64,000 nucleotides of DNA, taken from assembly GCA_965197745.1 (NCBI GenBank), contig CBDANS010000007.1, forward strand, positions 608,001-672,000, in the 5' to 3' direction. Positions within the stretch are counted from its first letter, which is position 1. Every line of letters begins with the position of its first letter. Shown one piece after another: positions 9,296 through 60,193 of the stretch. The notes under the pieces were generated by a model, which saw nothing but the letters and a program-made list of their open reading frames with translations, did no database searches and had not been told where the DNA came from. The DNA is from Opitutales bacterium. Its GTDB lineage: Bacteria > Verrucomicrobiota > Verrucomicrobiia > Opitutales > PNEW01. The translations under genes were made by a program, and so were the position numbers.

Positions 9296-9667
9296 TTAAG
9301 GCTTCGCCAGAATCCCGAGATTGAATTGGGCTTGGATGTGTCCCTGTTCGGCAGCTTTACTATACCATTTAACAGCTCTTCTTGAAATTTTATCTACATC
9401 TATACATTTTTCATATTTTACCCCAAGATAATATTGGGCGTCGGCGTATTTCTCACCAGCCATTTTACGAATCCATTTAAATGCTTCGGAGTGTTTCTGA
9501 ATATCTGCCTTGCGAAACCAATTGAAAGCCTGTGCATAATCTTGTTCTACACCTTCGCCTATGTAATGCATCATCCCAAGACTGAATTGGGCACCAGCAT
9601 ATCCTTTTTCAGCTGCTTTCTGAAACCACTTGAGTGCCTCGGCAAAATCCTGTTCTACGTACAAGCC
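9296..9667 (-). pseudogene. Sel1-like repeat protein fragment, 5' end cut at IS3
   Basis: AQFSLGMMHYIGEGVEQDYAQAFNWFRKA repeats; begins at the IS boundary and ends mid-repeat. Confidence 0.8.
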
Positions 9668-9696
9668 TGATTGGACCCCGTTTTTCGTACCAATTA

Positions 9697-10693
9697 TTAA
9701 GTGAGAGAGTTCCCGGGTATTAATGGTTTTAGGATTGATGTATATGAGAGATCTTGGCGAAGTGAGGGCGTAGCCCGAACGCGGCCAAGATCTGAAAGGA
9801 ATGTGACAAACTCTTGTGGGCTTTTAAAGCCTAAACGACTGTGGGGATGATCATGGTTATAGGTCTGGCGCCATTGTTCGATTACAACTTGTGCTTCAGC
9901 CACGCTGAGCAACACTTCACGGTTCAAACACTCATCGCGTAAGCGGTTGTGAAACGACTCGATGAAACCGTTTTGCCAGGGACTGCCCGGATCGATATAT
10001 ATCGCCTTGATCTTTTTGTCGGACAACGACTGCTGCACTTGATGAGCAATGAATGGCTTCGCATGTCGTCGCTTCGCTCCTCGGAACACTGCCGTTGTCA
10101 CTACGGATATAGCTGGGAGCTCCCTCCTTTTCAATGGCCTCGCTAAGCACAGAGAGGACATCCGATGAGGTGAGTTCACGAGCGACCCGGATATCCAGAC
10201 ATTCACGCGTATATGTCTTCGCTTCGCTTGAGTGTCGTCGCTTTCAGCTCCTCGGTACATCGATCAGAGTCATCATCTTTAATGGACCGCCATGGTCTGT
10301 GCGATCATGGACAAAGTCCCAGGACCAAAGGTGATTGCGACCGGTTGCTTTAGTAGGCGACCCCGTAGAGACCCCTTGACGGTGTCTACGCTTTTTAGGT
10401 GGCTTTACCTGCAACCCTTCTGAACGTCGTACTGCCTGAACAAACTTCCTGTTTGTTGTCCAGCCTTCCTTTACGAGCAAGGCACGGATGCGCCGGTAAC
10501 CGTAGCAGGGATGTTCCCAGGACAGGGTTATAATCCGCTCGGCCAACCGCTGAGCTTTCTTACTGGCCTGCTTGGGCTGGTAGCTGAAAGTTGACCAACT
10601 GAGGCTGAGGTAGGAACAAGCCCTTCGCAACGAGCACAGCCCTCTCTCAGCCGCATCTTTTACTACTCGCTTCTTCTGCTTGGGGCTCACCAC
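9697..10693 (-). pseudogene. IS3 OrfB (integrase core) split by two micro-insertions (10057-10087, 10217-10258)
   Basis: WSWDF, RSDNG and PGSPWQNGFIES motifs lie in three ORF pieces. Confidence 0.85.
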
Positions 10694-10953
10694 TTTTTTG
10701 ACAGCGTTTCCTCCATTACCTGATTCTTAAGCATTTGATCAGCGAGCATCTTCTTCAACTCGGTGTTTTCTTTTTCCAGCTCTTTAAATCGCTTCGCATC
10801 GGCTAGTTCCAAATTGCCATACTTTTTACCCCAGCGATAGAAGGTCTGTTCACTCACGTTGTTGCCTCGGCAGATTTCCTCTACCGTTTTTCCGGTATCG
10901 GCTTGCCGCAGTATTGCGATGATCTGTTCTGTTGTGTATCTTTTTCTTTTCAT
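10687..10953 (-). CDS. IS3 OrfA (HTH) with A AAA AAG -1 frameshift site at 10693-10699
   Basis: MKRKRYTTEQIIAIL...SEQTFYRW; AAAAAAGTGGTGA junction. Confidence 0.92.
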   Translation of the reverse strand: MKRKRYTTEQIIAILRQADTGKTVEEICRGNNVSEQTFYRWGKKYGNLELADAKRFKELEKENTELKKMLADQMLKNQVMEETLSKKW

Positions 10954-11336
10954 GAGGTTATCTGTTTATCCCGATAACCTCTCTCTGTTAATGATACCAT
11001 TTTTGGGGGTCACTCCACCGTTTATACAGGCATATTGTGACCAATGGAATACAAGCCGTGTATACGATGGTATACTTCTGATGATGCTGAAATGCGAAGG
11101 GGTACAGTAATTAATATCTGCCCATCACCCTTATTGCAAAAAATGTAGTATCTGCCTAAACCGATTAGATGAGACCGAGGGTAGGGAACATTGACACCCC
11201 CGCCCCTCTTGATGAACTTGATATTATAGGCACAATTTATCCTTTATATTGAATATCAGAATGTTTTTAATGCACCAGAAATGCACCAGTGAATTTATAA
11301 GTTTAATTATTGCTGTCTTAAGTATTTGAATATCAA

Positions 11337-11717
11337 GCTGAGGAGAGGTGGCAGAGTGGCTGACTACGAAGGTTAGAAACCTGAGACCCCATGTGCCTGG
11401 CTGCATCAGGCACAGTAGAAGTAAAATCGACTTTACATTATTCCATGAGTCGCAAATCGTCAGGCTGAGGAAAGGTGGCAGAGTGGCTGACTACGAAGGT
11501 TAGAAACCTGAGACCCCATGTGCCTGGCTGCATCAGGCACAGTAGAAGTAAAATCGACTTTGCATTATTCCATGAGTCGCAAATCGTCAGGCTGAGGAAA
11601 GGTGGCAGAGTGGCCGACTACGAAGGTTGAAAACCTGAGACCCCATGTGCCTGGCTGCATCAGGCACAATAGAAGTAAAATCGACTTTACATTAATCCAT
11701 GAGTCGCAAATCGTCAA
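11337..11717 (+). repeat. Three tandem 127-bp units, each starting with the tRNA-Ser 5' end
   Basis: GCTGAGGA starts at 11337, 11464, 11591 and 11718; units nearly identical. Confidence 0.95.
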
Positions 11718-11722
11718 GCTGA

Positions 11723-11812
11723 GGAGAGGTGGCAGAGTGGCCGAATGTGCCTGACTCGAAATCAGGTGGTGGAGCAATCCACCCGGGGGTTCGAATCCCT
11801 CCCTCTCCGCCA
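11723..11812 (+). tRNA. tRNA-Ser(CGA)
   Basis: GGAGAGG acceptor stem; CCTGA-CT-CGA-AA-TCAGG anticodon arm; long variable arm; GTTCGAATC; encoded CCA. Confidence 0.96.
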
Positions 11813-12356: not shown

Positions 12357-12791
12357 GTTAGATGTCGCCCACGCGGTAGCGGGGCTTGGTAGTCGATTTC
12401 GGATTTTCGATGAGGGATGTCGGGCTGTGCCCTCGGTAGTCGATTGGATAGAATAGCCACCAGCCGTCGTCCCGCGGTGGCGGGACTATGGCCGGCAAGC
12501 AAAAGGCACTACCAGAGCGCAGCGAGATCTTCCAAAGGCAGAAGAGATAATAATTTAGATAAGTATTTTTCAAGATAAGCTGTTTGGTAACCGACAGGAA
12601 CAATCGGCATTCGTACCGAGGGCGTTGCCCGACATCTTCCAAATCGACAATTGGCTCGTCCCTGAGATGCAAAATTAGGACCGTGACCAACCATCGCTTC
12701 TCTTCCCTGCGTGTGAAGGAAATTAGTCATTGAAATCCTGTCGCCGGTGCAGTTATAATGCTGATTAAATTTTAAAGCGAGGAAAGTTCAA

Positions 12792-54123: not shown

Positions 54124-54200
54124 GGGCTTGTAGCTCAGTTGGCTAGAGCGCTTGCTTTACACGCAAGATGTCGGCGGTTCGAGTCCGTCCAAGCCCACCA
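54124..54200 (+). tRNA. tRNA-Val(TAC)
   Basis: GGGCTTG acceptor stem; CTTGC-TT-TAC-AC-GCAAG; GTTCGAGTC; encoded CCA. Confidence 0.96.
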
Positions 54201-54414: not shown

Positions 54415-55152
54415 ATGAATAGTATACTTATCATTGAAGATGATGAATACTTTAGAGATCTGCTAAAGCAATTATTTGAAGCAGAAGACTATACGGTATT
54501 GGTAGCCTCGAACAGCAGGGGCGCCTTAAAAATCCTTCAGGAAGAAAATCCGGATCTCATAATTACGGATATTATAATGGAAGATATAGACGGTCTTGAA
54601 ATTATAATGGAGATAAAGAAGAAGAGCCCGGAAAAACCGATAATCGCCATTAGTGGTGGGGGCTCCATAGGCCCCAAAGCTTATTTGAGTTCGGCTAAGG
54701 CTTTAGGAGCGGACTTTACTTTTAGAAAACCGTTTTCAACCGATAAAATGTTGGACGCCGTAAAATCGATCATGACGACATCGATCAGAAAAATACTGGT
54801 CATCGAGGATGATGATAATTTTCGAGAGATGCTGAAGCAAATACTTGAGGTTGAGGGTTATAAAGTCATCGAGGCATCAGATGGCCGCACTGCCTTAAAG
54901 ATACTTCAGGAAGAAAATCCGGATCTTATAATTACAGACATTATAATGGAAGATATAGATGGTCTCGAAATTATCATGGAAATTAAAGAGGATAGACCGA
55001 CAAGGCCCATTATAGCCATAAGTGGCGGCGGTTCCATAGGCCCCAGTGCTTATTTAAGTTCGGCAAAAGTTTTAGGTGCAGATCATACTTTTACCAAGCC
55101 GTTTTCATTTGAAGATATACAAAGTACCCTGAAAGAACTGCTTGATCAATAA
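54415..55152 (+). CDS. Response regulator with two tandem receiver domains, no output domain
   Basis: ALKILQEENPDLIITDIIMEDIDGLEIIMEIK occurs twice. Confidence 0.9.
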   Translation: MNSILIIEDDEYFRDLLKQLFEAEDYTVLVASNSRGALKILQEENPDLIITDIIMEDIDGLEIIMEIKKKSPEKPIIAISGGGSIGPKAYLSSAKALGADFTFRKPFSTDKMLDAVKSIMTTSIRKILVIEDDDNFREMLKQILEVEGYKVIEASDGRTALKILQEENPDLIITDIIMEDIDGLEIIMEIKEDRPTRPIIAISGGGSIGPSAYLSSAKVLGADHTFTKPFSFEDIQSTLKELLDQ

Positions 55153-58843: not shown

Positions 58844-60193
58844 TGATTGGACCCCGTTTTTCGTACCAATTATTAAGTGAGAGAGTTCCCGGGTATTAAT
58901 GGTTTTAGGATTGATGTATATGAGAGATCTTGGCGAAGTGAGGGCGTAGCCCGAACGCGGCCAAGATCTGAAAGGAATGTGACAAACTCTTGTGGGCTTT
59001 TAAAGCCTAAACGACTGTGGGGATGATCATGGTTATAGGTCTGGCGCCATTGTTCGATTACAACTTGTGCTTCAGCCACGCTGAGCAACACTTCACGGTT
59101 CAAACACTCATCGCGTAAGCGGTTGTGAAACGACTCGATGAAACCGTTTTGCCAGGGACTGCCCGGATCGATATATATCGCCTTGATCTTTTTGTCGGAC
59201 AACGACTGCTGCACTTGATGAGCAATGAATGGCTTCGCATGTCGTCGCTTCGCTCCTCGGAACACTGCCGTTGTCACTACGGATATAGCTGGGAGCTCCC
59301 TCCTTTTCAATGGCCTCGCTAAGCACAGAGAGGACATCCGATGAGGGGAGTTCACGAGCGACCCGGATATCCAGACATTCACGCGTATATGTCTTCGCTT
59401 CGCTTGAGTGTCGTCGCTTTCAGCTCCTCGGTACATCGATCAGAGTCATCATCTTTAATGGACCGCCATGGTCTGTGCGATCATGGACAAAGTCCCAGGA
59501 CCAAAGGTGATTGCGACCGGTTGCTTTAGTAGGCGACCCCGTAGAGACCCCTTGACGGTGTCTACGCTTTTTAGGTGGCTTTACCTGCAACCCTTCTGAA
59601 CGTCGTACCGCCTGAACAAACTTCCTGTTTGTTGTCCAGCCTTCCTTTACGAGCAAGGCACGGATGCGCCGGTAACCGTAGCAGGGATGTTCCCAGGACA
59701 GGGTTATAATCCGCTCGGCCAACCGCTGAGCTTTCTTACTGGCCTGCTTGGGCTGGTAGCTGAAAGTTGACCAACTGAGGCTGAGGTAGGAACAAGCCCT
59801 TCGCAACGAGCACAGCCCTCTCTCAGCCGCATCTTTTACTACTCGCTTCTTCTGCTTGGGGCTCACCACTTTTTTGACAGCGTTTCCTCCATTACCTGAT
59901 TCTTAAGCATTTGATCAGCGAGCATCTTCTTCAACTCGGTGTTTTCTTTTTCCAGCTCTTTAAATCGCTTCGCATCGGCTAGTTCCAAATTGCCATACTT
60001 TTTACCCCAGCGATAGAAGGTCTGTTCACTCACGTTGTTGCCTCGGCAGATTTCCTCTACCGTTTTTCCGGTATCGGCTTGCCGCAGTATTGCGATGATC
60101 TGTTCTGTTGTGTATCTTTTTCTTTTCATGAGGTTATCTGTTTATCCCGATAACCTCTCTCTGTTAATGATACCATTTTTGGGGGTCACTCCA
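58844..60193 (-). mobile_element. IS3-family element, copy 2, with the same two micro-insertions (59233-59263, 59393-59434)
   Basis: Colinear with 9668-11017 (offset 49176); differences seen at 59347 and 59609. Confidence 0.95.

Follow-up and report, generated by a model that had tools for sequence, protein, structure and literature searches.

Insertion sequences (ISs) are known to insert into repetitive extragenic palindromic (REP) sequences. Here we describe what appears to be the reverse, small REP-like repeats inside the transposase gene of an IS3-family element from an Opitutales bacterium. The stretch analysed, referred to below as the window, comprises 64,000 nucleotides (nt) of contig CBDANS010000007.1 (assembly GCA_965197745.1; G000:C7:608001-672000 in our numbering, from a genome of 4.45 Mb in 7 contigs). 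It holds two copies of the element, and in each of them orfB, the second transposase reading frame, is broken by two short blocks, insert 1 and insert 2. Several described systems resemble these blocks to some degree. Programmed bypass elements are known from gene 60 of phage T4 and, under the name 'byps', from the mitochondria of Magnusiomyces. The small dispersed repeats of Nostoc and Anabaena, reportedly described by Elhai and co-workers in 2008, are said to be tens of bases long and to insert into other mobile elements, with clean filled and empty sites. They resemble our blocks in size and in having mobile elements as targets, but belong to another phylum and have other sequences. The inserts themselves are members of a REP-like repeat family, and the closest described kind is the superfamily of CGTC/TGTC-tagged REPs that has no dedicated transposase (Di Nocera, De Gregorio and Rocco 2013, PMC3733652). 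An earlier note on the window, made from its letters alone, had stated that no described family fits, which turns out to be half right. We consider it rather likely that such repeats were inserted at the DNA level, that the transposase is dead and that the IS has spread in trans.

In most respects the host is a regular IS3 element. OrfA has a helix-turn-helix (HTH) domain and is followed by OrfB in the -1 frame via an A_AAA_AAG heptamer, the ends are TG...CA terminal inverted repeats (TGGAGTGACC... and ...GGTCCAATCA; the coding strand of copy 1 begins TGGAGTGACCCCC... and ends ...GGGGTCCAATCA), and a 4-bp target duplication surrounds 6 of the 23 full-length copies of this type in the genome, the remaining copies having none. 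Unlike in a typical IS3 element, orfB is broken twice, and the DDE (rve) signature D,D(35)E appears only once both blocks have been removed in a script. A Pfam search of the element as it stands finds HTH_Tnp_1 in orfA, and HTH_21 plus the middle part of rve in the pieces of orfB. Removal of 42 + 31 nt yields a single stop-free frame of 307 codons; as the earlier note had claimed, its second Asp and the Glu are 35 residues apart. The last segment of orfB is covered by natural uninterrupted homologues (P0002, P0007, P0012 and P0014). The boundaries of the IS (Table 1) were derived from its genomic copies, which form two subfamilies: A, with 9 full-length copies at least 99.5% identical to one another, both window copies among them, and B, with 14 full-length copies roughly 90% identical to A. 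The two window copies, offset by 49176 nt, had been said to differ at two or more positions outside the inserts; their alignment finds exactly two mismatches, at 10171 and 10433, and the inserts are identical.

Table 1. Coordinates in the window of the two IS copies, their parts and two further members of the repeat family
Feature	Position	Strand	Description and basis
IS3-family insertion sequence, copy 1 (subfamily A)	9668..11017	minus	1350 bp; edges from near-identical genomic copies
IS copy 2	58844..60193	minus	2 differences from copy 1
orfA, 88 aa, intact	10687..10953	minus	Open reading frame (ORF) list; PF01527 HTH_Tnp_1, E 1.3e-21
A_AAA_AAG slippery heptamer, -1 frameshift into orfB	10693..10699	minus	Read from the sequence; orfA and orfB frames overlap there
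orfB, first segment	10258..10693	minus	Stops at the codon after the first catalytic Asp (..LID + G); PF13276 HTH_21
Insert 1, refined	10215..10257	minus	43-nt block T...C in place of one A of a GAA codon; filled versus empty copies
orfB, middle segment between the inserts	10088..10214	minus	rve profile positions 32-76; A/B dN/dS 0.125
Insert 2, refined	10055..10086	minus	32-nt block T...C in place of one A of the Glu codon in the SDNGSEF motif; filled versus empty copies
orfB, last segment (catalytic Glu, C-terminus)	9700..10054	minus	Out of frame with the middle segment; ORF list; script-restored frame
Insert 1 in copy 2	59391..59433	minus	Motif scan, copy alignment
Insert 2 in copy 2	59231..59262	minus	Motif scan, copy alignment
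Short member TACCGAG-GGC ACA GCC-CGACA	12418..12438	minus	Intergenic; genome C7:620438
Short member TACCGAG-GGC GTT GCC-CGACA	12614..12634	plus	Intergenic; genome C7:620614

Direct reading bears out the letters first assigned to the inserts (10217-10258 and 10057-10087, minus strand), as well as their consequences in both IS copies: insert 1 adds a net 42 nt including an in-frame TGA, and insert 2 adds a net 31 nt that shift the frame. Each IS copy contains the motif CCGAGGAGC-N-GCGACGACA twice; these 4 occurrences are all that the window has, with 0 expected from shuffles. The blocks are real, but their limits have to be moved slightly, the true start lying one base after the G originally taken as the first letter and the end at C(A). 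We set these limits by the empty sites of paralogous copies, aligning 37 of about 40 related genomic loci. Site 1 is empty in 7 of the 37 copies, reading GATG-AA-TATACG (Asp-Glu-Tyr), and site 2 in 3, reading AGTG, then AG or AA, then TTCATT (the SDNGSEF motif). At each site a T[A/T]CCGAG...CA block has taken the place of the second and third bases of a GAA or GAG (Glu) codon; this is the reason why the usual Glu is not regenerated at either site, a fact that had been noticed before. Two further orfB sites are occupied in other copies: site 3, at Trp-Gln-Asn-Gly, by 42 nt that are in frame and stop-free, and site 4, at Arg-Asp-Glu-Cys, by a net 35 nt. The combinations found among the aligned copies are 1+2, 3+4, 2+3, 2+4 and all four, and none of the 37 is empty at all four sites. 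In other words, all four sites exist in both filled and empty states, which establishes insertion at the DNA level. Empty sites always read GAA or GAG, and no footprints were seen at them, so there is no sign of insert loss. Insert 1 is unchanged between subfamilies A and B and in the copies of two related genomes (G032 and G060, see below), while its flanks vary.

The possibility that the inserts are assembly or sequencing artefacts is negligible, because contigs of four public runs, independent of one another and drawn from three studies, contain them too, as do two genomes of another genus.

The repeat family to which the inserts belong is readily seen across the genome. A search with the relaxed motif T[AT]CCGAG-N4-18-[CT]GACA, along the lines suggested in the earlier note, gives 260 hits compared with 14 on the reversed genome; 127 of the hits belong to IS3 contexts and the remaining 133 do not. 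Units between genes measure 17-28 nt, and the IS inserts, with two modules, 32-44 nt. The unit would begin with TACCGAG or TTCCGAG at its 5' end, continue with a mini-hairpin of variable sequence, in many cases GCGNAGC, and close with CGACA, with a second short module added in the longer forms. Outside IS elements the hairpin stem co-varies (GGGC/GCCC, GGAC/GTCC, TCCCGC/GCGGGA, CGTG/CACG), and the variable middle of many copies is GCGNAGC, a motif reported to form a DNA mini-hairpin of extraordinary stability (PMC13037366). Outside ISs, the 55 copies whose stem measures at least 3 bp avoid long ORFs: 18% fall in ORFs of at least 150 aa, versus 82% of 3000 random positions. Fifty-five copies lie within a larger unit, and some of these form inverted doublets bounded by TTGTCATTGCGAGG repeats. 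A stricter motif for the long form is present in 24 of 201 Opitutales genomes, representing 19 of 104 genera (reverse control, 0), and the family motif reaches at least 10 hits in 14 of the 201, a patchy distribution. In other genomes the same 5' module heads different tails. Within the window, the two short members listed in Table 1 are separated by 176 nt and face opposite ways; the intergenic stretch containing them (12418-12634) is rich in AATCG-type short repeats.

These repeats share with the CGTC/TGTC-tagged superfamily a short tag plus a stem-loop in units of 20-45 nt, a high copy number, a mostly extragenic location with occasional genic copies, and no dedicated transposase gene adjoining. 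The tag itself may be comparable: the other strand of our repeats starts TGTCG..., and the long forms contain CGTC, which lies 3 nt inward of the TGTC end in long forms only (TGTCGTCGC). A palindromic stem close to the tag is another common trait, its 3-6 bp co-varying in many of our intergenic copies; in the IS inserts the stem is just GC-NNN-GC flanked by G/A. Several properties set the Opitutales repeats apart, in that about half of the copies (127 of 260) reside in IS3 transposase genes at a few fixed codons, each IS site has its own site-specific insert variant and loses two target bases, the stem is often the 2-bp GCGNAGC mini-hairpin, and the conserved 7-nt TACCGAG at the far end is outside the published definition. 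Comparison with REPINs (Bertels and Rainey 2011, PMC3116915) gives a similar picture: some of our copies are inverted doublets in a larger unit with terminal inverted repeats, whereas the IS inserts are single units and an association with RAYT was not found here. The single Y1_Tnp gene of this genome is probably frameshifted and has no element nearby, so that no Y1 (RAYT) transposase gene is flanked by the repeats, and none of 7 Y1 loci inspected in 6 genomes has an element within about 1 kb. Co-occurrence with Y1 was discarded as a lead. PF01797 is found in 14 of 14 repeat-rich genomes but also in 106 of 201 overall, the genomes are related, and no element stands beside the genes. Nor is there a clear strand bias relative to GC skew of the kind expected for IS200/IS605-type movement, as non-IS copies number 49 plus and 38 minus in G>C regions and 23 and 29 in C>G regions. 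What is new is that a REP-like micro-repeat appears to colonise conserved transposase codons in a site-specific manner. The portions of the literature consulted on small dispersed repeats, bypassing, REPs in transposase genes and Opitutales ISs hold no description of such inserts.

Members of the family were also observed at the ends of partial tRNA copies, after GGTTCG (T-loop) or GGTTAG (D-loop), beside a whole tRNA gene and sometimes in tandem arrays. Such cases occur in this genome (C6:355555, C6:355653, C5:236552) and in others (L009, L070, L071, L073). In L070 and L071 the target AA is retained, in contrast to the IS sites. We considered the T-loop inserts as a test for obligatory removal and rejected this, since none of the 3 cases here is in a working tRNA; they lie in partial duplicates of tRNA 3' ends that follow intact tRNA-Asn and tRNA-Gln genes. 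The D-loop case at L009 was likewise rejected as a working tRNA, being a fragment upstream of a whole tRNA-Met.

For the broken transposase two explanations had been offered at the outset: (a) a small structured element that is excised or bypassed and thereby gates expression, and (b) a mini-repeat that hit the IS, which then spread with the inserts in place. Option (a) has features in common with programmed bypass elements, since blocks of 30-50 nt stand in the coding sequence and one of them has a stop after a codon that recurs in frame. To address it we aligned the contigs of two metatranscriptome runs and two other runs to the IS. Contigs from RNA libraries run without a gap through insert 1 (X18 record 14, 725 nt; X19 record 18) and through insert 2 (X18 record 13). 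Insert-free joints were found as well, in X4 for site 1 and in X1, X4 and, within a variant copy, X18 for site 2. What stands at these joints is the native A, AG or a variant sequence, none of which could come from a filled copy, and therefore they represent empty DNA copies. Gaps in the coverage of the RNA contigs were left out of account. Since rare forms are lost from contigs and RNA libraries may contain some DNA, the result speaks against bulk splicing only. No curated Rfam family matched above threshold, so that, together with the lack of spliced RNA in the contigs, neither a self-splicing intron nor a known ribozyme came to light. A sub-threshold match to sR23, an archaeal C/D-box small RNA, at 10242-10278 on the minus strand (15.3 bits against a gathering score of 45, E 0.6) was set aside as probably due to chance; it arises from ATGATGA 5' of insert 1 and CTGA inside it.

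A related possibility is that the transposase of subfamily A is alive but attenuated, with low-rate readthrough of the TGA or an AGC-to-AGC hop at insert 1 and a +1 shift in insert 2; A would then mobilise both itself and the dead B, and the inserts would act as a brake. We hold this to be quite improbable. The AGC-TGA...AGC arrangement previously pointed out in insert 1 is indeed in register, and by eye the reading frame leaving insert 2 is open through the whole insert, both of which suit such a scheme. However, the TGA-bearing insert in orfA of G060 has no counterpart of this take-off and landing pair, and insert 2 offers just a short GCG-to-GCG pair by eye, not comparable to AGC...AGC. No suppressor or selenocysteine tRNA (anticodon tca, cta or tta) is found among 44 tRNAs, which also argues against readthrough. 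The GC-GAA-GC mini-hairpins of the earlier note are present as sequence, but as RNA the inserts fold no better than shuffled controls (z +0.3 to +1.7), with no stable bypass take-off structure; in this, and in the lack of a consistent take-off/landing pair, they depart from bypass elements. Moreover, these repeats abound outside genes, with members between genes and within fragments of tRNAs, contexts in which recoding would be meaningless, and three independent rare events (the -1 shift, the stop bypass and the +1 shift) would be needed together. In favour of attenuation, subfamily A is the sole otherwise intact helper candidate for A/B-type ends in the assembly, an insert-free copy was seen in none of three genomes, the inserts stay invariant while their flanks diverge, and G060 harbours a 1345-nt family with two in-frame TGA inserts (about 35 places listed, 3 copies examined, each carrying the orfA insert plus insert 1). 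Taken together, the inserts retained in RNA contigs, the missing suppressor tRNA and the absence of excess structure leave gating by option (a) not supported, and we infer that orfB is not recoded. The blocks would be transcribed with the gene and not removed and, being kept, would leave orfB of these copies unable to yield a full-length transposase. The enzyme gene is thus most likely dead rather than switchable.

The IS population of the genome is informative about how such an element could spread. Inserts 1 and 2 are present in all 9 A and all 14 B copies. Clean 4-bp target duplications are seen in 3 of the A and 3 of the B copies; therefore, insert-bearing copies did transpose. In addition, orfB of all 14 B copies has an in-frame TAG (TCG TTT TAG, e.g. 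C6:174863-176213) where A has TTG CGA, and this TAG is an old nonsense mutation in an element that went on multiplying. As B carries the TAG in every copy, which gives it a second reason to be dead, and multiplied nonetheless, non-autonomous spread of dead copies does happen here. The same TAG was also noted in several decayed, much more diverged copies. A second IS3 species, family D, has 4 insert-free copies of 1286-1290 bp, two of them with the standard layout. Insert 2 is present in family C, which has about 29 copies of 1320 bp and shares 94% identity with D. All C copies and the two other D copies, which are insert-free too (D1/D2; C4:136857-138146 and C7:1901264-1902553), have a 4-nt change in orfA in common. 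Through this change the OrfA N-terminus is fused to the frame of orfB, and the leucine-zipper region is scrambled. With the repeat family, the target duplications and the TAG-bearing B copies in its favour, option (b) is the best supported of the two. According to it, the element would now be non-autonomous, its 23 insert-bearing full-length A and B copies having been spread by transposase acting in trans, and the supplier would be either a copy since hit, lost or left unassembled, or a related IS3 element.

It is also conceivable that the order of events was the opposite, the IS multiplying intact and the micro-elements then homing or being converted into the dispersed copies, so that all were silenced. 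We regard this as unlikely, even though several observations fit it. The homologous codon holds the same variant in IS3 lineages whose flanks are 70-90% identical or non-alignable: insert 2 is found in 71 copies with 9 flank clusters, insert 1 in 32 copies with 5 and insert 4 in 14 copies with 5, identity among the copies of a variant being mostly 94-100%. Furthermore, subfamily C-b corresponds to family D with an insert precisely added, its bases remaining lineage-specific up to both junctions, and conversion of flanking sequence is therefore excluded; independent site-specific gain of the insert would be the simplest reading. Silencing after the spread would account for the lack of clean copies too. 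On the other hand, the genome has 4 D copies free of inserts alongside insert 2 in its 71 copies, and no A or B copy is filled at site 3 or 4 though inserts 3 and 4 occur in the genome. The TAG of B and the 4-nt change of C cannot home and yet are present in every copy of their families, and therefore B and C spread as dead elements.

We also compared the consensus sequences of A and B by the ratio of nonsynonymous to synonymous substitution rates (dN/dS). It amounts to 0.075 in orfA, 0.14 in orfB upstream of insert 1, the value given in Table 1 between the inserts, and 0.19 downstream, with wrong-frame controls, available for the upstream and middle segments only, at 1.05-2.9. The transposase as a whole evolved under purifying selection; that selection acted with the inserts in place does not follow from this. 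The inserts are identical in A and B, despite a dS of 0.5-0.9 flanking insert 1 (the surroundings of insert 2 are nearly identical anyway), and therefore they are either younger than the A/B split or constrained. Polymorphism was rejected as a test of selection after insertion, as the counts (4 synonymous, 5 non-synonymous and 1 indel among the 9 A copies; 11 and 9, clustered and recombinant-looking, in B) are too few and too confounded by recombination.

The check for an insert-free copy that the earlier note had proposed found none of this IS in the genome or in two related ones, so that no intact donor, which the note had listed among the findings that would refute its view, came to light. 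The best full-length stop-free OrfB of the assembly is that of family D, at 46-47% identity. By eye, the left end of D is like that of A at roughly 24 of 33 positions, the right ends matching less well; cross-mobilisation may be possible. The closed genomes G032 and G060, of another genus in the same family, contain the IS at 88-92% identity and in every occupancy state (insert 1 only; 2 only; 2+3; 1+2+3; all four). A fifth site, in orfA, is seen in related genomes, where a 27-nt insert with an in-frame TGA accompanies insert 1 or insert 4. When the three genomes were searched for copies with neither site 1 nor site 2 filled, the pattern, an exact-match one that diverged copies could escape, returned 10 hits, each of which is truncated or has an insert elsewhere. 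The best of these hits (L049 and L053 in G060) have a clean orfB and the orfA insert.

Uninterrupted relatives do exist elsewhere. Public protein data include OrfB homologues (306-307 aa) that retain the native Asp-Glu-Tyr and SDNGSEF motifs, contain rve plus rve_3 and share 90-93% identity with the protein described here, as measured on the first 144 residues, and another Opitutales metagenome-assembled genome has about 30 uninterrupted copies of an IS that is 61% identical at the protein level. Protein P0005, from a public cluster of 42 member sequences, is 92% identical over the first 144 residues and has an in-frame 7-residue VPRSEAS at site 2 with the Glu kept. This peptide may be a repaired or shortened insert, and such an in-frame remnant suggests that in some lineages the frame was regained by a change in DNA, a further point against attenuation by recoding. 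The back-translated pattern of P0005 matches in none of the 201 genomes.

Several observations weigh against the spread of dead copies in trans. The assembly, which is 92% complete, contains no uninterrupted OrfB that exceeds 60% identity to the restored one along its full length, and every examined full-length copy in G032 and G060 has at least one insert. With no intact donor found in three genomes, the helper is therefore hypothetical. A rare spliced form is compatible with the RNA contigs, and translation is outside their reach. Subfamily A is otherwise flawless, and its dN/dS relative to B stays at 0.08-0.19 throughout, also in the segments downstream of insert 1. The inserts are invariant while their flanks diverge, which could mean that the insert sequence is under selection. 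Finally, insert-bearing copies outnumber insert-free ones (about 29 in C versus 4 in D), which is odd given that transposases of the IS3 family act preferentially in cis.

As to how the blocks chose their positions, each would have entered a Glu codon in a conserved DDE-motif region, overwriting its last two bases, as ultra-small REP-like repeats specific to this lineage that integrated into the transposase gene at the DNA level. The presence of the same variant at the same codon across IS3 lineages looks like homing. It is tempting to go one step further and regard each variant as a non-coding homing micro-element of 31-44 nt, site-specific for the DNA of the most conserved DDE motifs and of tRNA loops, in other words a parasite of parasites that progressively silences IS3 populations; we put this forward as a tentative and somewhat doubtful proposal. 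Family D is empty and so are sites 3 and 4 of A and B; therefore, homing would be inefficient at present. The checks of the Y1 genes, gene neighbourhoods and co-occurrence turned up no linked mobilising enzyme. In the homing view the GCGNAGC DNA mini-hairpins hint that such an enzyme may act on single-stranded DNA. Guide-like pairing was tried for 4 variants and rejected, the longest match or complement to a variant's own flanks being 4-5 nt, compared with 4-6 nt for the flanks of other variants.

Should the homing reading be true, the inserts would be among the smallest site-specific mobile DNAs known and would represent one route of IS inactivation, with a bearing on the burn-out of IS expansions in symbiont genomes. 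The filled and empty sites are unusually clean for REP-like repeats without a dedicated transposase, whose mode of movement has been a question for decades. For annotation, the inserts explain many 'pseudogenised' transposases in Opitutales and call for caution against reading such breaks as recoding signals.

A few features near the IS and elsewhere in the window are worth recording. An ORF with Sel1-like repeats (..AEKGYAGAQFSLG.., 9296-9664, minus strand) begins a few bases from the end of IS copy 1 and, judging from this position, may be a gene cut by the IS insertion. Adjoining the same IS copy, three tandem partial tRNA-Ser-like copies are followed by a whole tRNA-Ser(CGA) at 11723-11812 (the array spans 11224-11812), a pattern that would result from repeated integration at a tRNA gene. 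Just 3' of a tRNA-Val (54124-54200), the stretch 54424-55092 contains a 300-nt direct repeat with a spacing of 369 nt and 76% identity.

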